Below, in pieces: positions 1 to 8,687 of a stretch of 8,687 nt of DNA. A program made the translations under genes and the position numbers. Numbering within the stretch: position 1 is the stretch's first letter; every line of letters begins with the position of its first letter. This stretch comes from a virus. Its lineage: Duplodnaviria; Heunggongvirae; Uroviricota; Caudoviricetes. The notes below the pieces were generated by a model. That model made no database searches. It saw nothing but the letters and a program-made list of their open reading frames with translations, and was not told the origin of the DNA. Location of the stretch: the IMG/VR virus record IMGVR_UViG_2896595138_000004; one strand, 5' to 3'.

Positions 1-375
<375 letters not shown>

Positions 376-600
376 ATTTAACGCCTTACGCAGTTGCAGA
401 ATTTCAGATTCCAGTTCAGCCACCGTGCGGGAACCAGGAGTACCGAGCCCTTTTCTGGCGGCGGTAACCCATTGTCCTAAAGTGCCTTCAGGAAGGGATA
501 ATCGGGAAGCGCCTTCACTGATCGAAAGTTGATTTTCAAGAACCGTTCTGACAGCTTCGGCTTTGAACTCTTTAGAGTAACGTTGGGTTTTTCTGCTCAT
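376..600 (-). pseudogene. IS600-like orfA, truncated after about 75 codons by the IS911 insertion
   Basis: Product MSRKTQRYSKEFKAEAVRTVLENQLSISEGASRLSLPEGTLGQWVTAARKGLGTPGSRTVAELESEILQLRKALN ends at a stop codon supplied by the terminal TGA of the IS911 inverted repeat (373-375), i.e. the reading frame is cut by the inserted element. Confidence 0.6.
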
Positions 601-664
601 TATTAGCTCCTTCTGATGCCATTCTATTTCAGGAAGGAGTGTCCGTTAAACTCAGGCTACCTCA
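376..664 (-). mobile_element. IS600-like IS3-family element, left-end fragment interrupted by the IS911 insertion
   Basis: Reverse complement of the 664 end reads TGAGGTAGCCTGAGTTTAACGGACACTCCTTCC... (TG terminus), then a strong SD (AAGGAG, 6-nt spacer) and an orfA start at 600; the orfA product resembles IS600 OrfA. Lambda-T/H-like sequence resumes at 665. The 664 boundary is inferred from the TG terminus and where phage sequence resumes. Confidence 0.6.
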
Positions 665-766
665 GAGAACGGGATACCGGAGCGAACGGACGAAGAACTG
701 ATGCATCTTGGGGAAGGTATTTCCGGAGGTGTGCGTTATGGACCAGATAGCCAACCTGGTCATTGA
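665..766 (+). pseudogene. 3' remnant of tail assembly chaperone gene (lambda T-like), 5' part removed or displaced by the IS insertion
   Basis: Frame 2 is open from the IS boundary (665) to TGA at 764-766, reading ENGIPERTDEELMHLGEGISGGVRYGPDSQPGH, and overlaps the H start as the T stop overlaps H in lambda. Assignment to T rests on position and gene order only; I cannot verify the residues from memory. Confidence 0.3.
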
Positions 767-3700
767 TTTGGGGATTGATGCGGCAGAGTTTAAAAATGAA
801 ATTCCCCGTATCAAAAACCTTCTGAATGGTGCAGCCGGTGATGCAGAACGGTCTTCTGCCCGTATGCAGCGTTTTATGGAGCGTCAGACTCAGGCGGCCC
901 GGCAGACAATGCAGGCGGCTTCTTCGGCTGCAACAGCAGCATCAGCCCATGCGCAGACGGTGGAGAAGAATGCACGGGCTCATGAACGCATGGCCCGTGA
1001 GGTGGAACAAACCCGTCTGCGCGTGGATGCCCTGAATCAGAAAATGCGCGAGGAACAGGCGCAGGCCAGGGCACTGGCGGAGGCGCAGGATAAAGCGGCT
1101 GCCGCCTTTTATCGCCAGATTGACAGTGTGAAACAGGCCGGTGCGGGGCTTCAGGAATTACAGCGTATTCAGCAGCAGATCCGACAGGCCAGAAACAGTG
1201 GCGGGGTTGGTCAGCAGGATTATCTGGCGCTGATTTCGGAGATCACGGCGAAAACCCGTGCCCTGACGCAGGCAGAGGAACAGGCCACCCGGCAGAAAGC
1301 GGCGTTTATCCGCCAGCTTAAAGAGCAGGCAACCCGCCAGAATCTGTCGTCTTCTGAGTTGCTTCGCGCCAGGGCGGCTCAGCTGGGGGTAAGCAGTGCT
1401 GCAGAAGTGTATATCCGCAAAATGGAGCGGGCAGGAAAAGCCACACATTCGCTGGGGCTGAAAAGTGCGGCAGCCCGGCGGGAGCTGGGGGTGTTAATCA
1501 GTCAGATGGCGCGCGGCAATTTTGGTGCGCTGAGGGGAGCCGGGATAACGCTGGCTAACCGTGCCGGATGGACAGGCGCACTGATGTCGCCGAAAGGCAT
1601 GATGACTGGCGGCGTTATTGGCGGACTTGTCGCGGCGGTCCTGGGTCTGGGTAAAGCCTGGCATGACGGCCGGAAGGAGGGCGAGGAATTTAACCGTCAG
1701 CTGGCGCTGACGGGACATTATGCCGGTGTCACTGTCGGGCAGTTGTGGAAACTCAGCCGGGCCATATCCGGGAATGGTATCACGCAACATGCGGCAGCCG
1801 GTGCGCTGGCACAGGTGGTGGGCAGTGGGGCATTTCATGGAAACGATATTGGTATGGTGGCGAAAGCTGCCGCACAGATGGAGCGATCGGTTGGCCAGTC
1901 GGTCAGCGATACCATAAATCAGTTTAAGCGGCTGAAGGATGATCCTGTAAATGCCGCGAAGGCGCTGGACAATGCGCTGCATTTTTTGACTGCCACTCAG
2001 CTTGAGCAGATACGCGTCCTTGGGAGCAGGGGCGGTCCAGTGATGCGGCCCGGATCGCCATGTCTGCGCTGGCAGAGGAAACCGGTAAACGCACATCTGA
2101 TATTGATAATAATCTCAATGCGCTGGGTAGTACGCTGCAAACCTTGTCTGACTGGTGGAAGCAGTTCTGGGATGCGGCCATGAATATTGGTCGTGAAGAC
2201 TCGCTGGATGCGCAGATTGATGCGTTACAGGAAAAAATTCAGCGCGCGAAAAAATATCCGTGGACAAACGCCTCCACACAGGTGGAGTACGATCAGCAGC
2301 GTCTTAACGATCTTCAGGAGAAAAAACGCCGGAAGGATTTGCAGGATGCAAAAGCGCAGGCAGAACGGAATTACCAGGAGCAACAGAAACGCCGGAATGC
2401 TGAAAATGCCGCGCTGAACCGGATGAATGAAACGGAAGCTGCACGACATCAGCGGGAAATTGCGCGTATTAATGCCATGCAGTACGCCGACCAGGCTGTC
2501 AGGGATGCGGCGATACAGCGTGAAAATGAACGTTACGAAAAAGCCATTAAGAAAAATACACGGGCAACCCGTAATGATGAGGCCACCCGGTTATTGCTGC
2601 AGTACAGTCAGCAACAGGCACAGGTGGAAGGGCAGATTGCTGCTGCCAGACAGTCAGCAGGCATTGCCACTGAAAGGATGACTGAAGCGCATAAACAGCT
2701 TCTGGCCCTGCAGCAGCGCATCAGCGACCTGGACGGGAAAAAGCTGACGGCAGATGAAAAGAGTGTGCTGGCCCGTAAGAATGAGCTGATTCAGGCGCTG
2801 ACGCTGCTGGATGTGAAACAGCAGGAGCTGCAGAAACAGACAGCGCTTAACGACCTGAGAAAAAAAACGGTTCAGCTGACCAGCCAGCTGGCAGACAAAG
2901 AACGTGCACTGCGTGAGCAGCACAATCTGGATATTGCCACTGCAGGTATGGGGGATAAGCAGCGGCAGCGCTACCAGGCACAGTTGCGCATCCGGCAGGA
3001 ATACCGGCAACAGTTGCAACAGCTTGAGAATGACAGTCGCCAGAAAGGCACTTACGGGACGGAGGACTACCGGAGGGCTGAGGAGGTGCTGAAGGGGAGC
3101 CTGAAGCGACAACTGAATGAAAACAAACGCTACTGGCAGGAACTGGAAGTGGCGCAGGGCGACTGGAAAAACGGTGCCATGCGGGCGTTTCAGAATTTTA
3201 CGGCGGATGCGGATAATGCGGCGGGAACGGCAGAACAGATGTTTACAGTGGCATTCAGCAGTGCCGGTAATGCACTGGCGACATTCTGTACCACCGGTAA
3301 GCTGAATTTTAAATCCTTCACCTCTTCCCTGTTGTCAGATATGGCCAGAATTATGGCACAGATGGCCATGATGCAGGCGGTAAAGGGCGTCGGTTCTTTA
3401 TTCGGCTCCACGACTAATGCTGATGGCGGTGTTTACCAGTCTGCTGATTTGAGTCGCTACAGTGGCACGGTGGTTAACCGTCCGACGTTTTTTGCTTTTA
3501 CAAAAGGCGCGGGTGTGATGGGGAAGCGGGACCTGAAGCCATTCTGCCACTGCGTCGCGGTGCTGATGGTAAGCTGGGGGTTGTGGCGGATACTGGTGGT
3601 TCAGGCATGGTGATGTTTGCCCCGCAGTACAACATCGGGATCAATAACGACGGCACGAACGGGCAGATAGGTCCGGCAGCACTGAAGGTGGTTTATGACC

Positions 3701-3777
3701 TCGGGAAAAAAGCGGCCGCGGACTTTATGCAACAGCCGGCCCGTGATGGTGGCCGGTTAAGTGGAGCATACCGGTAA
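738..3777 (+). pseudogene. H: Tail tape measure protein (lambda gpH family), about 1013 codons if repaired; interrupted by two -1 frameshifts
   Basis: ATG at 738 preceded by GGAGG (725-729, 8-nt spacer). N-terminus MDQIANLVIDLGIDAAEFKNE aligns with lambda H MAEPVGDLVVDLSLDAARFDEQ; C-terminus ...NIGINNDGTNGQIGPAALKVVYD matches lambda H ...VINNDGTNGQIGPAALKAVYD. The frame passes 0 -> 2 at GGG 2022-2024 (RVLG|EQGRSSDAARIAMSALAEE) and 2 -> 1 at GGGG 3520-3523 (GVMG|EAGPEAILPLRRGADGKLGVVADTGGSG). Stop TAA at 3775-3777 overlaps the M start. Confidence 0.85.
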
Positions 3778-4105
3778 TGGAGACGTTTCGCTGGAAGGTG
3801 CGCCCGGATATGAATGTGGTATCAGAGCCAAAAGTGGTGGCAGTGAAGCTGGGTGATGGTTATGAACAGCGTCGCCCGGCGGGACTGAATAATCTGCTGT
3901 CGACTTACAGCGTGACGATACGTGTTCGTAAAGGTGAACACCCACCTTTAAAAGCCTTTCTGGAACGGCACGGTGGCGTCCGCGCATTTCAGTGGACGCC
4001 ACCTTATGACTGGAAACCGATCAGGGTGGTTTGTCGTAAATGGTCGGCAAACGTGGGGCGTTATGGGTGACTGTAACGGCCGATTTTGAACAGGTGGTGA
4101 ACTGA
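3777..4105 (+). pseudogene. M: Minor tail protein M (lambda gpM family), 109 codons if repaired; -1 frameshift 16 codons before the end
   Basis: METFRWKVRPDMNVVSEPKVVAVKLGDGYEQRRPAGLNNLLSTYSVTIRV... aligns with lambda M MKTFRWKVKPGMDVASVPSVRKVRFGDGYSQRAPAGL... Frame 0 stops at 4068-4070, but frame 2 from the GGGG run at 4055-4058 reads ALWVTVTADFEQVVN-stop (TGA 4103-4105), matching the lambda M C-terminus ...VEFSAEFEQVVN and restoring the TGATG overlap with L. Confidence 0.8.
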
Positions 4106-4803
4106 TGCAGGATATCCGGCAGGAAACACTGAATGAATGCACCTGTGCGGAGCAGTCAGCCCGGGTGGAGCTCTGGGAAATCGATCTGACAGAGGTCGGT
4201 GGTGAGCGTTATTTTTTCTGTAATGAGCAGAACGAAAAAGGTGAGCCGGTTACCTGGCAGGGGCGGCAGTATCAGGCATACCCCATTCAGGGGACGGGAT
4301 TTGAACTGAACGGCAAGGGCAGTGCTGCCCGTCCGATACTGACGGTCTCTAACCTGCACGGCATGGTCACCGGGATGGCGGAAGACCTGCAGAGTCTGGT
4401 CGGCGGAACGGTGGTCAGGCGTAAGGTTTACGCCCGTTTTCTGGATGCGGTGAACTTCGTCAACGGAAACAGTGACGCCGATCCGGAGCAGGAGGTGATC
4501 AGCCGCTGGCGCATCGAGCAGTGCAGCGAACTGAGCGCGGTCAGTGCCTCTTTTGTACTGTCCACGCCGACGGAAACGGACGGTGCTGTTTTTCCGGGGC
4601 GCATCATGCTGGCTAATACCTGCACCTGGACCTATCGCGGTGATGAGTGCGGTTATCACGGTCCGGCTGTCGCTGATGAATATGACCAGCCGACGTCCGA
4701 TATCACGAAGGATAAATGCAGCAAATGCCTGAGTGGTTGTAAGTTTCGCAATAACGTCGGCAACTTTGGCGGCTTCCTTTCCATTAACAAACTTTCGCAG
4801 TAA
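4105..4803 (+). CDS. L: Minor tail protein L (lambda gpL family), 232 aa, intact
   Basis: MQDIRQETLNECTCAEQSARVELWEIDLTEVGGERYFFCNEQNEKGEPVTWQGRQYQAYPIQGTGFELNGKG... is near-identical to lambda L as I recall it; same length as lambda L (232 aa); ATG overlaps the M stop (TGATG). Confidence 0.9.
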   Translation: MQDIRQETLNECTCAEQSARVELWEIDLTEVGGERYFFCNEQNEKGEPVTWQGRQYQAYPIQGTGFELNGKGSAARPILTVSNLHGMVTGMAEDLQSLVGGTVVRRKVYARFLDAVNFVNGNSDADPEQEVISRWRIEQCSELSAVSASFVLSTPTETDGAVFPGRIMLANTCTWTYRGDECGYHGPAVADEYDQPTSDITKDKCSKCLSGCKFRNNVGNFGGFLSINKLSQ

Positions 4804-4808
4804 ATCCC

Positions 4809-5552
4809 ATGACACAGACAGAATCAGCGATTCTGGCGCACGCCCGGCGATGTGCGCCAGCGGAGTTGTGCGGCTTCGTGGTGAGAACGCCGGAGGGGGA
4901 AAGATATTTTCCCTGCGTGAATATCTCCGGTGAGCCGGAGGCGTATTTCCGGATGTCGCCGGAGGACTGGCTGCGGGCAGAGATGCAGGGTGAGATTGTG
5001 GCGCTGGTCCACAGCCACCCCGGTGGTCTGCCCTGGCTGAGTGAGGCTGACAGGCGGCTGCAGGTGCAGAGCGATTTGCCTTGGTGGCTGGTCTGCCGGG
5101 GTGAGATTCATAAATTCCGCTGTGTGCCGCATCTTACCGGGCGGCGCTTTGAGCACGGGGTGACGGACTGTTACACGCTGTTCCGGGATGCTTATCATCT
5201 GGCGGGGATTGAGATGCCGGATTTTCATCGCGGGGATGACTGGTGGCGTCACGGTCAGAATCTCTATCTGGATAATCTGGAGGCCACAGGGCTGTATCAG
5301 GTGCCGTTGTCAGCGGCGCAGCCGGGCGATGTGCTGCTGTGCTGTTTTGGTTCATCGGTGCCGAATCATGCCGCCATTTACTGTGGTGACGGCGAGCTGC
5401 TGCACCATATTCCTGAACAACTGAGCAAACGAGAGAGGTATACCGACAAATGGCAGCGACGCACACACTCCCTCTGGCGTCACCGGGCATGGCACGCATC
5501 TGCCTTTACGGGGATTTGCAACGATTTGGCCGCCGCATCGACCTTCGTGTGA
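4809..5552 (+). CDS. K: Tail assembly protein K (lambda gpK family): N-terminal JAB/MPN (JAMM) domain plus C-terminal NlpC/P60-like domain, 247 aa, intact
   Basis: Uninterrupted 247-codon ORF starting 6 nt after the L stop. Contains a canonical JAMM motif H68-S-H70-x7-S78-x2-D81 (HSHPGGLPWLSEAD, nt 5010-5051) and a Cys-containing NlpC/P60-like segment (GVTDCYTLF). Overlaps I by 103 nt, as K and I do in lambda. Confidence 0.9.
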   Translation: MTQTESAILAHARRCAPAELCGFVVRTPEGERYFPCVNISGEPEAYFRMSPEDWLRAEMQGEIVALVHSHPGGLPWLSEADRRLQVQSDLPWWLVCRGEIHKFRCVPHLTGRRFEHGVTDCYTLFRDAYHLAGIEMPDFHRGDDWWRHGQNLYLDNLEATGLYQVPLSAAQPGDVLLCCFGSSVPNHAAIYCGDGELLHHIPEQLSKRERYTDKWQRRTHSLWRHRAWHASAFTGICNDLAAASTFV

Positions 5553-6088
5553 AAACGGGGCCGAAGCCATCCGGGCGCTGGCCACACAGCTCCCGGCGTT
5601 TCGTCAGAAACTGAATGACGGCTGGTATCAGGTGCGCATTGCCGGGCGTGATGCAGGTGAAACCGAATTATCTGCCCGTCTTAATGAGCCGCTGGCAAAT
5701 GGTGCAGTGATCCACATAGTACCGCGTCTGGTGGGAGCTAAAAGTGGCGGTGTGTTTCAGGCGGTGCTGGGGGCGGCTGTTATGGCGGTTGCTATATGGA
5801 TGCCGGGGTAGGAATTATGGCGAGTAATCTGCTGTTTTCTCTCGGTGCCAGTATGACGCTTGGCGGTGTTGCACAGATGCTGGCACCGAAAGCCAGAACT
5901 CCCGTACACAGACAACGGATAACGGTAAGCAGAACACATATTTCTCGTCACTGGATAACATGGTTGCCCAGGGCAATGTTCTGCCCGTTCTGTACGGTGA
6001 AATGCGCGTGGGGTCACGTGTGGTTTCTCAGGAGATCAGCACGGCAGACGAAGGGGATGGTGGTCAGGTTGTGGTGATTGGTCGCTGA
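5450..6088 (+). pseudogene. I: Tail assembly protein I (lambda gpI family; N-terminal ubiquitin-like domain ending in GG), about 213 codons if repaired; three -1 frameshifts
   Basis: MAATHTLPLASPGMARICLYGDLQRFGRRIDLRVKTG matches the lambda I N-terminus; the C-terminus ...TDNGKQNTYFSSLDNMVAQGNVLPVLYGEMRVGSRVVSQEISTADEGDGGQVVVIGR-stop (TGA 6086-6088) matches the lambda I C-terminus. The frame passes 2 -> 1 at GGGG 5557-5560, 1 -> 0 at GGGG 5805-5808 and 0 -> 2 at CCC 5901-5903. Confidence 0.8.
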
Positions 6089-6105
6089 TGCAAAATGTTT
6101 TATGT

Positions 6106-6136
6106 GAAACCGCCTGCGGGCGGTTTTGTCGTTTAT
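6106..6136 (+). terminator. Candidate intrinsic terminator / RNA hairpin in the I-J intergenic region
   Basis: GAAACCGCC (6106-6114), loop TGCG, GGCGGTTTT (6119-6127), then a T-rich tract TTTTGTCGTTT, placed 18 nt after the I stop and before the J ribosome-binding site (GAGGA 6144-6148). Function not demonstrable from sequence. Confidence 0.35.
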
Positions 6137-6148
6137 GGAGCGTGAGGA

Positions 6149-8687
6149 ATGGGTAAAGGCAGCAGTAAGGGGCATACCCCGCGCGAAGCGAAGGACAACC
6201 TGAAATCCACGCAGTTGCTGAGTGTGATTGATGCCATCAGCGAAGGGCCGGTTGAAGGTCCGGTGGATGGATTAAAAAGCGTGCTGCTGAACGGTACGCC
6301 GGTGCTGGACAGCGAGGGGAAGACAAACTTTTCCGGTGTTACGGTGGTGTTCCGTGCAGGTGAGCAGGAGCAGACACCGCCGGAGGGTTTTGAATCCTCC
6401 GGCTCCGAGACGGTGCTGGGTACGGAAGTGAAATATGACACGCCGATCACCCGGACCATCACGTCGGCAAACATCGACCGTCTGCGCCTGACCTTCGGTG
6501 TGCAGGCACTGGTGGAAACCACCTCAAAGGGTGACCGGAATCCGTCGGAAGTCCGCCTGCTGGTTCAGATACAGCGTAACGGTGGCTGGGTGACGGAAAA
6601 AGACATCACCATTAAGGGCAAAACCACTTCGCAGTATCTGGCCTCGGTGGTGGTGGGTAACCTGCCGCCGCGCCCGTTTAATATCCGGATGCGCAGGATG
6701 ACACCGGACAGCACCACAGACCAGCTGCAGAACAAAACGCTCTGGTCGTCGTACACCGAAATCATCGATGTGAAACAGTGCTACCCGAACACGGCACTGG
6801 TCGGCGTACAGGTGGATTCGGAGCAGTTCGGCAGCCAGCAGGTGAGCCGTAATTATCATCTGCGCGGGCGTATTCTGCAGGTGCCGTCGAACTATAACCC
6901 GCAGACGCGGCAATACAGCGGTATCTGGGACGGAACGTTTAAGCCAGCATACAGCAATAACATGGCCTGGTGTCTGTGGGATATGCTGACCCATCCGCGC
7001 TACGGCATGGGGAAACGTCTTGGTGCGGCAGATGTGGACAAATGGGCGCTGTATGTCATCGGCCAGTACTGCGACCAGTCAGTGCCGGACGGATTTGGCG
7101 GCACGGAGCCGCGCATCACCTGTAACGCTTACCTGACCACACAGCGTAAGGCGTGGGATGTTCTCAGTGATTTCTGCTCGGCGATGCGCTGTATGCCGGT
7201 ATGGAACGGACAGATGCTGACGTTCGTGCAGGACCGACCGTCGGATAAGGTGTGGACCTATAACCGCAGTAATGTGGTGATGCCGGATGATGGCGCGCCG
7301 TTCCGCTACAGCTTCAGCGCCCTGAAGGACCGCCATAATGCCGTTGAGGTGAACTGGATTGACCCGGATAACGGCTGGGAGACGGCGACAGAGCTTGTTG
7401 AAGATACGCAGGCCATTGCCCGTTACGGTCGTAATGTCACGAAGATGGATGCCTTTGGCTGTACCAGCCGGGGCAGGCACACCGAGCCGGGCTGTGGCTG
7501 ATTAAAACGGAACTGCTGGAAACGCAGACCGTGGACTTCAGCGTGGGCGCAGAAGGGCTTCGCCATGTACCGGGTGATGTCATTGAAATCTGCGATGATG
7601 ATTATGCCGGTATCAGCACCGGTGGTCGCGTACTGGCGGTGAACAGCCAGACCCGGACGCTGACGCTCGACCGTGAAATCACGCTGCCGTCCTCCGGTAC
7701 CACGCTGATAAGCCTGGTTGACGGAAGTGGCAATCCGGTCAGCGTGGAGGTCCAGTCCGTCACCGACGGCGTGAAGGTGAAAGTGAGCCGGGTTCCTGAC
7801 GGCGTTGCCGGATACAGCGTGTGGGGGCTGAAGCTGCCGACGCTGCGTCAGCGCCTGTTCCGCTGCGTGAGTATCCGTGAGAACGATGACGGCACATATG
7901 CCATCACCGCCGTGCAGCATGTGCCGGAAAAAGAGGCCATTGTGGATAACGGGGCACACTTTGACAGTGACCGGCGCGGCACGGTGAATGGTGTCACGCC
8001 GCCAGCAGTGCAGCACCTGACCGCAGAAGTCATCGCAGGCAGCGGGGAATATCAGGTGCTGGCGCGCTGGGACACGCCGAAGGTGGTGAAGGGGGTGAGC
8101 TTCCTGCTTCGCCTGACCGTGGCAGCGGATGACGGCAGTGAGCGGCTGGTCAGCACAGCCCGGACGACGGAAACCACATATCGTTTCACGCAGCTTGCGT
8201 TGGGGCGTTATACGCTGACAGTCCGGGCGGTAAATGCCCGGGGCAGCAGGGCGATCCGGTGTCGGTATCGTTCCGGATTGCGGCACCGGCAGCGCCTGTC
8301 ACTATTGAACTGATACCGGGGTATTTTCAGATAACGGCGGTCCCGAAACTGGCTGTATATGACCCGACGGTGCAGTTTGAGTTCTGGTTTTCGGAAAAGC
8401 GGATTGCGGATATCAGGCAGGTTGAAACCAGCGCCCGCTATCTTGGCACGGCGCTGTACTGGATAGCCGCCAGTATCAATATCAGGCCGGGCCATGATTA
8501 TTATTTTTACGTTCGCAGTGTGAACACCGTTGGCAAATCGGCATTTGTGGAGACCATCGGTCGGGCGAGCGATGATGCGGAAGGTTATCTGAATTTTTAT
8601 AAAGGGTTGATCAATAAAACGCACCTCGGCAAGGAACTGCTGGAAAAAGTCGAGCTGACGGAAGATAACGCCAGCAGACTGGAGTAA
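6149..8687 (+). pseudogene. J: Host specificity protein J (central tail fibre, lambda gpJ family), N-terminal about 846 codons; two -1 frameshifts; reading frame reaches TAA at the window end
   Basis: MGKGSSKGHTPREAKDNLKSTQLLSVIDAISEGPVEGPVDGLKSVLLNGTPVLD... is near-identical to the lambda J N-terminus, with high similarity throughout. The frame passes 2 -> 1 at GGGG 7470-7473 (TSRG|QAHRAGLWLIKTELLETQ) and 1 -> 0 at GGGG 8240-8243 (AVNARG|[15 protein letters not shown]). In-frame TAA at 8685-8687 follows ...[10 protein letters not shown], where lambda J continues for roughly 285 more residues. Confidence 0.9.

Follow-up and report, generated by a model that had tools for sequence, protein, structure and literature searches.

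The closest described system is the tail-tip assembly block of phage lambda. The gene order L-K-I-J is well known as a lambda-type tail-tip assembly block, and the K/I pair and its domains are already in the literature. Lambda K appeared with its JAMM motif in a listing from 2003 (PMC300881). Iyer, Burroughs and Aravind reported in 2006 that TAPI, which combines a ubiquitin-like (Ubl) domain with a glycine, is flanked in lambdoid and T1-like phages by TAPK, which combines a JAB with an NlpC/P60 domain, and proposed that K processes I (PMC1779556). The idea of a protease and its ubiquitin-like substrate for K and I was thus published in 2006 and is not new. Lambda gpK is needed for tail assembly, yet is undetected in virions by mass spectrometry and cryo-EM (PMC10721106, PMC12617516). 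Lambda virions show only residues 134/135-223 of gpI, as a trimeric plug under the gpH C-terminus (PMC10721106, PMC12617516). The absence of gpI residues 1-133 in cryo-EM could be due to disorder instead of removal, and the virion mass-spectrometry supplement contains a single gpI peptide (9.9% coverage), too little to place the ubiquitin-like part. An experimental test of K cleaving I was not found in the literature searched.

The window, i.e. the whole stretch of DNA analysed here (8,687 nt), corresponds to the distal tail block in a prophage of the lambda type. Its main features are as follows.

About 1-700, minus strand: IS911/IS600-type transposase fragments.
From 708: tape-measure gene H.
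3777-4070: gene M.
4105-4803, plus strand: gene L, minor tail/tip protein of 232 aa (Pfam Phage_tail_L, E=9.1e-99; synteny with lambda L).
4809-5552, plus strand: gene K, tail-tip assembly protein K, intact, 247 aa (RefSeq name 'C40 family peptidase').
5450-6088, plus strand: gene I, tail-tip assembly/plug protein I (Pfam Lambda_tail_I on fragments; 213 aa once repaired).
6149 onward: start of gene J.

The K-I stretch is 91-96% identical to that of many lambdoid coliphages, the records of which assign tail tip assembly proteins L, K, I and J to it. Matches with up to 97.3% identity also occur in prophages of E. coli, namely in 4,410 of 5,426 complete genomes. A database entry with exactly the K sequence is named 'C40 family peptidase [Shigella boydii]'. 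The locus occurs with the same flanks in eight other S. boydii assemblies, including IS elements directly upstream of H, and in several of these an IS4 element truncates J at about 846 codons. Because of the IS elements upstream of H and the IS4-cut J, the locus is classified as a defective, IS-truncated lambda-like prophage remnant of Shigella boydii.

K of the window and lambda gpK (TAPK of Iyer et al. 2006) are 96% identical, with the same L-K-I-J synteny, spacing to L, K/I overlap and combination of JAB and NlpC/P60 domains. The K start codon lies 5 nt after the stop codon of L, which ends at 4803, and the spacing is the same in lambda. When K from resequenced lambda is used, 238 of 247 residues are identical; none of the nine substitutions is catalytic. 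PHROG 30, 'minor tail protein', also matches K (E=2e-163). Two peptidase domains were assigned to the protein, and an internal start codon lies within the first of them.

4815-5123, plus strand: JAB/MPN+ (JAMM) metalloprotease domain of K, residues 3-105 (Pfam PF14464, Prok-JAB).
4953-4955, plus strand: internal ATG (Met49) of K, used as the start of K (199 aa) in the lambda reference and by some gene callers.
5139-5480, plus strand: NlpC/P60 (C40, papain-like) domain of K, residues 111-224 (Pfam PF00877).

Prok-JAB matches residues 3-105 of K with profile positions 3-113 of 114 (E=5.6e-14, 52.4 bits, cut-off 25), and NLPC_P60 matches with its full profile, positions 1-105 (E=1.7e-12, 47.6 bits, cut-off 23). 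An earlier note, made from the letters of the window, had predicted both domains and had tied its reading of K to a JAB domain detectable within residues 1-90; the JAB match at residues 3-105 and the scores of both profiles, which exceed the curated cut-offs, bear this out. The same holds for its claim of a complete JAMM motif with the upstream part in the first 48 codons. The motif residues are E19 (nt 4863-4865), H68, S69, H70, S78 and D81, the last five within HSHPGGLPWLSEAD, which represents K residues 68-81 (nt 5010-5051), so that the full pattern E-x(n)-H-S/T-H-x7-S-x2-D is present. E19 aligns with the Glu in the P-x-E-x-CG element of the JAB protein PDB 2KKS. The triad of the NlpC/P60 domain consists of C121 (5169-5171), H187 (5367-5369) and H199 (5403-5405).

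Conservation was scored in an alignment of 108 K sequences, comprising K of the window and 107 distant full-length homologues with 35-60% identity. In the JAMM motif, E19 is kept in 102 of 108 sequences, H68 in 104, H70 in 103, S78 in 97 (with Thr in eight more) and D81 in 104; in the triad, C121 is kept in 102 and each of H187 and H199 in 103. By this measure, both peptidase sites are under family-wide purifying selection. The conserved core ends near residue 227, and conservation in distant relatives is poor over the last approximately 20 residues, the part that overlaps the start of I.

An AF2 model of K of the window has a pLDDT of 87.4 and places a helix (residues 3-15) and two strands (21-27 and 30-36) within the core of the JAB domain. 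A Foldseek search with the N-terminal half returned P. furiosus JAMM1 (5lda/5ld9; TM 0.65, rmsd 2.5-2.7), Rpn11 and CSN5, whereas the C-terminal half returned MepS/Spr, LytE, C. difficile autolysins and other NlpC/P60 endopeptidases. The assignment of K as a protein with a JAB and an NlpC/P60 domain is thereby backed by profiles, conservation and predicted structure.

The length of K differs between records. In the window, the open reading frame 4809-5552 comprises 247 codons, and the sequence MSPEDWL starts at residue 49. Lambda K in RefSeq/GenBank spans 14276-14875 and is 199 aa long, starting at the equivalent of Met49; this is the shorter annotation to which the earlier note had referred. 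The reference records in question are J02459 and NC_001416 (the 1982 reference). They are without one G after nt 14266 (GGAGGC-TATTTCC), and the frame opening at ATG 14133 is thereby closed. The missing G and an unbroken 247-codon reading frame are found in four independently sequenced lambda derivatives, namely lambda imm21, DE3, a 2025 record and Lambda_AGU, and the 2025 record already annotates K as 247 aa. About 20 low-coverage contigs of contaminating lambda DNA in unrelated bacterial genomes differ from the reference over K by this G alone. For the lambda gt10 transgene of the MutaMouse, a published variant table contains the entry '14266 C -> CG' without comment (PMC6760142); an explicit statement that lambda K is mis-annotated was not found in the literature searched, in which this uncommented table was the only trace. 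On these three lines of evidence, the 199-aa form of lambda K is an artefact that arose because the 1982 reference lacks a single G, and K of the window is longer than the reference annotation only because of that G.

The two forms of lambda K behave differently in profile searches. The 247-aa protein matches the JAB profile at positions 3-112 with 52 bits, whereas the 199-aa form reaches 23.3 bits (cut-off 25), matches profile positions 63-112 of 114 only, and is without the catalytic Glu. Full-length homologues in Escherichia, Shigella, Salmonella and Citrobacter are 242-249 aa long, mostly 247 aa, and contain both domains. Distant relatives with 35-60% identity, retrieved in a search of 1.84 billion cluster representatives, align from about K residue 4-10. 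Large clusters of 199-aa proteins also exist and were considered as true N-terminal truncations. This was rejected, as representatives of two of these clusters keep the 48 upstream codons open and conserved; judged by these codons, the 199-aa clusters are start-codon choices.

A functional K of 199 aa that starts at Met49, with the upstream 48 codons untranslated, has some signals on its side. GGAGG is located 11 nt upstream of the ATG at 4953, while no Shine-Dalgarno sequence precedes the ATG at 4809, and the short start is chosen by gene callers and given in several curated phage records. The first 48 codons, however, account for the catalytic Glu of the JAB domain together with its helix 1 and strands 1-2 and are conserved down to 35% identity, the short form falls below the Pfam JAB cut-off, and the upstream reading frame is open in every natural copy examined. 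The 5-nt gap between L and K would moreover be compatible with translational coupling. A functional 199-aa K is therefore considered highly improbable. As read from the domain boundaries and the alignments, the true K is the 247-codon gene starting at 4809, the start that the earlier note had favoured: the upstream codons are conserved in relatives and encode the structural elements and the Glu named above. Work in which lambda K is modelled, cloned or mutated from J02459 / NC_001416 deals with a truncated enzyme, and the short start is carried over by many gene callers. Documentation of this one-base error, through which K is truncated in the lambda reference, is a useful by-product of this comparison.

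The gene downstream, I, overlaps K and encodes the putative partner of its JAB domain.

5450-5552, plus strand: K/I overlap of 103 nt, with I in the -1 frame relative to K.
5489-5751, plus strand: ubiquitin-like (MoaD/ThiS/SAMP-type beta-grasp) domain of I, residues 14-101, ending with AKSGG.

The out-of-frame overlap of 103 nt had been described as conserved relative to lambda. The same length is found in lambda (14773-14875) and also in the loci of two Citrobacter species, Edwardsiella and E. albertii. Among records, I is given as 213, 200, 191 or 176 aa depending on the start codon chosen. Met1 (5450) is supported as the start, together with the 103-nt overlap, by the conservation of Met1 in E. 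albertii, two Citrobacter species and Edwardsiella. Two other starts, which several records give, were disfavoured: Met14, since E. albertii and Edwardsiella have CTG as codon 14, and the GTG at the K stop, since its use would remove the first strands of the Pfam domain. A programmed -1 frameshift giving a K-I fusion was considered, as I is read in the -1 frame and fused K-I proteins exist in databases. It was rejected because no X_XXY_YYZ heptamer occurs in or near the overlap and because the fused proteins form clusters of at most two member sequences, mostly singletons.

In the intact I of a nearly identical S. boydii locus (L010, see below), Pfam PF06805 (Lambda_tail_I) matches residues 14-97 with 84.3 bits; the split fragments of the window score 24.1 and 21.7 bits with the same profile (cut-off 23.8). 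An AF2 model was made for an intact I homologue with 96% identity. It is of moderate confidence and based on a shallow alignment: the N-terminal domain has a pLDDT of 63-78 and the element order beta-beta-alpha-beta...beta, and the remainder is of low confidence. With this N-terminal domain, the top 50 PDB matches in Foldseek are all ubiquitin-like, led by MoaD, SAMP1 and Urm1 (TM 0.67-0.74 on the target), at E-values of about 1e-3. AKSGG is encoded by nt 5737-5751 and represents residues 97-101 of intact I, as in lambda. Among 23 I homologues, G96, A97, K98 and G101 are invariant, and G100 is kept in 21. According to these matches and the model, I starts with a beta-grasp domain of the MoaD/SAMP type, at the end of which lies a conserved Gly. 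Both the ubiquitin-like N-terminus and the di-glycine near residue 100 had been predicted in the earlier note; the former is recovered by PF06805 in the intact copy and by the beta-grasp matches in Foldseek, and the latter lies at residues 97-101 with an invariant G101. Lambda gpI (TAPI, PF06805) has the same Ubl N-domain ending with AKSGG at 97-101, a hydrophobic linker and the C-terminal plug domain. I of the window locus differs from it by a linker that is 10 residues shorter (213 versus 223 aa), and the assembled I of the window is split by three one-base contractions.

These contractions are single-base deletions that divide I of the window into three reading frames.

5557-5560, plus strand: first frameshift in I, five G reduced to four (five G in all six readable copies among the eight other S. 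boydii assemblies, and in lambda and mEp332).
5805-5808, plus strand: second frameshift in I, five G reduced to four (five G in all eight other S. boydii assemblies).
5901-5903, plus strand: third frameshift in I, four C reduced to three (four C in all eight other S. boydii assemblies).

In the sequence as given, K is intact and I carries three frameshifts, just as the earlier note had stated. For comparison, two S. boydii references were used, L010 (a 4.84-Mb contig) and L016 (an 8-kb contig of a fragmented draft), which are mutually identical over 8,018 nt. The window differs from both by three substitutions and eight one-base contractions, seven in G runs and one in a C run. Two of the contractions are located in H (2022-2024 and 3520-3523), one in M (4055-4058), three in I and two in J (7470-7473 and 8240-8243). 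Seven sites were checked directly, and the longer run was found in every other assembly with matching flanks; for the eighth site, pairwise comparisons gave the longer run in L010 and L016. Diverged natural lineages of the locus show 25 substitutions to two indel events, or 81 to four, and the ratio in the window differs from these (Fisher p=1.3e-4 and 5e-7, respectively). When the three bases are restored in I, the resulting protein is identical to the intact I of L010 at 213 of 213 residues. The frameshifts of I in the window are very probably homopolymer under-calling in the assembly and not decay, as judged from assembled sequences rather than from reads.

If the three shifts in I and the five contractions in H, M and J were real, I would be a pseudogene and K an orphan protease. 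This would suit the decaying state of the prophage, and genuine lesions of I occur in sister lineages of S. boydii: a G deletion in GCTG(G)CACC is common to four assemblies (three of these are fragmented drafts in which the locus lies on short contigs), the complete genome L011 has a different 1-nt deletion, and an IS element is inserted at the 3' end of I in L012. These lesions are part of a general erosion of the remnant, in which H and J are also damaged. Against this reading, eight out of the eleven differences that separate the window from its nearest assemblies are losses of 1 nt from G or C runs (seven G and one C, on one strand), none of the eight is common to any of the eight other assemblies, and I shows no amino-acid change besides the shifts, while natural lineages of this locus accumulate about 12-20 substitutions per indel event. 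Even with real shifts, the sparing of K among the few lesions of an 8-kb remnant would be the chance expectation. The comparison loci were retrieved by exact identity of K, so that K is intact in them by construction, and this carries no evidential weight. Real mutations in I are, on balance, unlikely. The suggestion that the protease is left without its substrate is not supported here: the shifts in I belong to a set of eight assembly-private contractions and are probably assembly errors, the repaired I is fully identical to an intact copy, and the locus is an IS-truncated remnant in any case. The window illustrates how homopolymer miscalls can pass for pseudogenisation.

As a separate observation, the closest phage record, mEp332, contains the same kind of contraction in K and I.

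How K might act on I can be described by comparison with the JAMM1/SAMP and Rpn11/ubiquitin pairs. The modelled JAB domain of K can be superposed on PfJAMM1 (5lda, solved with SAMP2), Rpn11 and CSN5; its closest structural relative is a desampylase solved with a ubiquitin-like substrate. The N-domain of I superposes on MoaD, SAMP1 and Urm1, and as in the JAMM1/SAMP-type pairs the Gly is positioned at the C-terminal end of the beta-grasp. The K/I module differs from these systems in being without an E1/E2 partner, in the Ubl of I being the N-terminal part of a larger protein, so that any cleavage would be of the peptide-bond 'pro-Ubl' type, and in the fusion of the JAB domain to a second, papain-like peptidase (predicted).

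In the favoured account, K is a non-structural assembly protein, with a predicted N-terminal JAB/JAMM zinc isopeptidase and a predicted C-terminal NlpC/P60 cysteine peptidase. I consists of the Ubl domain (about residues 14-101), a hydrophobic Gly/Ala-rich linker and a C-terminal domain equivalent to the trimeric tip plug of lambda. In the proposed mechanism, the JAB domain of K may cut I just after the C-terminal Gly of the Ubl while the tail initiator is being assembled, by analogy with JAMM1 on SAMP and Rpn11 on ubiquitin. Cleavage would free a ubiquitin-like chaperone part, the C-terminal part of I would remain in the tip, and K itself would not stay in the virion. Indirect support comes from lambda virions, in which gpI is represented by residues 134/135-223 and gpK is lacking (PMC10721106, PMC12617516), and from the desampylase and the MoaD and SAMP1 structures as nearest relatives of the two domains. 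The joint account, which combines a lambda-like L-K-I-J remnant, a 247-aa K with two peptidases, an I with a Ubl domain, cleavage of I by the JAB domain and frameshifts due to miscalls, is regarded as likely. The further claim that the lambda tail tip has in K its missing processing enzyme is given little probability; the evidence extends to two intact, strongly conserved active sites and to the absence of K from the virion.

As an alternative, the peptidases of K would not act on I, with the NlpC/P60 domain cutting peptidoglycan at infection or with K processing another tail protein such as the tape-measure gpH (gpH to gpH*). The nearest NlpC/P60 structures are indeed cell-wall D,L-endopeptidases (MepS, LytE), and no protease has been assigned to the cleavage of gpH (PMC12617516). 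E. coli MepS/Spr and B. subtilis LytE, which belong to the NlpC/P60 (MEROPS C40) D,L-endopeptidases, have the same fold and Cys-His-His triad as K. In contrast to these enzymes, K has neither a signal peptide nor a cell-wall-binding domain, lambda gpK is absent from virions (PMC10721106), and the substrate of its NlpC/P60 domain is probably a protein. As gpK was detected in virions neither by mass spectrometry nor by cryo-EM, an action on the host wall at entry is not expected, and the absence of K from the particle makes a cell-wall role of its NlpC/P60 domain at infection unlikely. The tight, conserved linkage of K and I, with a JAB domain next to a Gly-terminated Ubl, is the classical signature of an isopeptidase and its substrate (PMC1779556). 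The alternative that the peptidases of K do not act on I is given little probability, and I is retained as the preferred substrate of the JAB domain.

One further feature was noticed between I and J.

6105-6135, plus strand: terminator-like GC-rich hairpin followed by a T-rich tract, I-J intergenic (RNA fold -21 kcal/mol, z=-2.5).

The hairpin was not flagged by a consensus terminator scan but is visible on folding. In phage Ayreon, a 'terminator' is annotated at the equivalent position.

One G is absent from the lambda reference sequence (NC_001416/J02459) at nt 14266, which is position 1267 of the lambda reference locus (L002) and corresponds to about 4942 in the window. This G is present in all other lambda-derived sequences examined except OR474059 and OR974322, which match the lambda reference exactly across the region and may be reference-guided. 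Because the reference lacks this one base, annotated lambda K is truncated from 247 to 199 aa, with loss of the JAMM catalytic Glu. The shorter form starts at an internal ATG, Met49, which is preceded by the following element:

Window 4940-4955: GGAGG, 11 nt before the Met49 start codon

The true K start lies 5 nt past the L stop and is without a Shine-Dalgarno sequence. The presence of GGAGG before Met49 and its absence at the true start are probably the source of the thousands of 199-aa K entries produced by gene callers. Translation of K is likely coupled to that of L.

Short contigs consisting essentially of phage lambda DNA alone were also observed inside representative genomes of unrelated taxa, including Neobacillus, Pseudoxanthomonas, Pseudomonas, Chromatium, Enterococcus, Paenibacillus, Shewanella, Bradyrhizobium, Kitasatospora and others (genome contig loci L020-L033, L039, L040, L042, L043, L047, L049 and L051). 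Coverage is about 1x among the contigs whose name states it. These contigs are presumably spike-in or reagent contamination.

The start of I is inconsistent across public records, giving products of 213, 200, 191 or 176 aa. Met1 of I and the 103-nt K/I overlap (window 5450-5552) are kept as far as Edwardsiella; unlike the conserved Met1, codon 14 reads CTG in two genera. Distant K homologues show weak conservation of the final ~20 residues of K, the part that overlaps the I start.

Comparison with otherwise identical assemblies revealed five single-base G-run contractions in the window in addition to the three in I:

Window 2022-2024: contraction breaking H
Window 3520-3523: contraction breaking H
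Window 4055-4058: contraction breaking M
Window 7470-7473: contraction breaking J
Window 8240-8243: contraction breaking J

They are of the same type as those in I, and homopolymer miscalls therefore appear to affect the entire window. Real, independent lesions of I are carried by sister S. boydii lineages (other assemblies of the same locus):

L009, L013, L014 and L015, ~L014:5220: shared G deletion in GCTGGCACC of I
L011, ~6830: a different 1-nt deletion in I
L012, 7260-8525: IS element inserted at the 3' end of I

The record of phage mEp332 (L001, PV340541) has one-base contractions of its own, in a G run of K and a C run of I (positions ~700 and ~1730), which displace the annotated K start and I C-terminus. 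They are probably sequencing errors in the record of a viable phage.

Between I and J, inside the late operon, a hairpin is conserved (-21 kcal/mol, z = -2.5), and a terminator is annotated at the matching site in the phage Ayreon record:

Window 6105-6135: GC-rich hairpin with a T-rich tract after it

This element may be a terminator or an RNA stability element, or it may have no role.

In this prophage, a remnant, two transposase fragments (window 1-700) adjoin the start of H, in place of the upstream tail and head genes:

Window 1-339, minus strand: IS3-family orfA fragment, IS911-like
Window 373-600, minus strand: IS3-family orfA fragment, IS600-like

In relatives, J is cut by an IS4 element.
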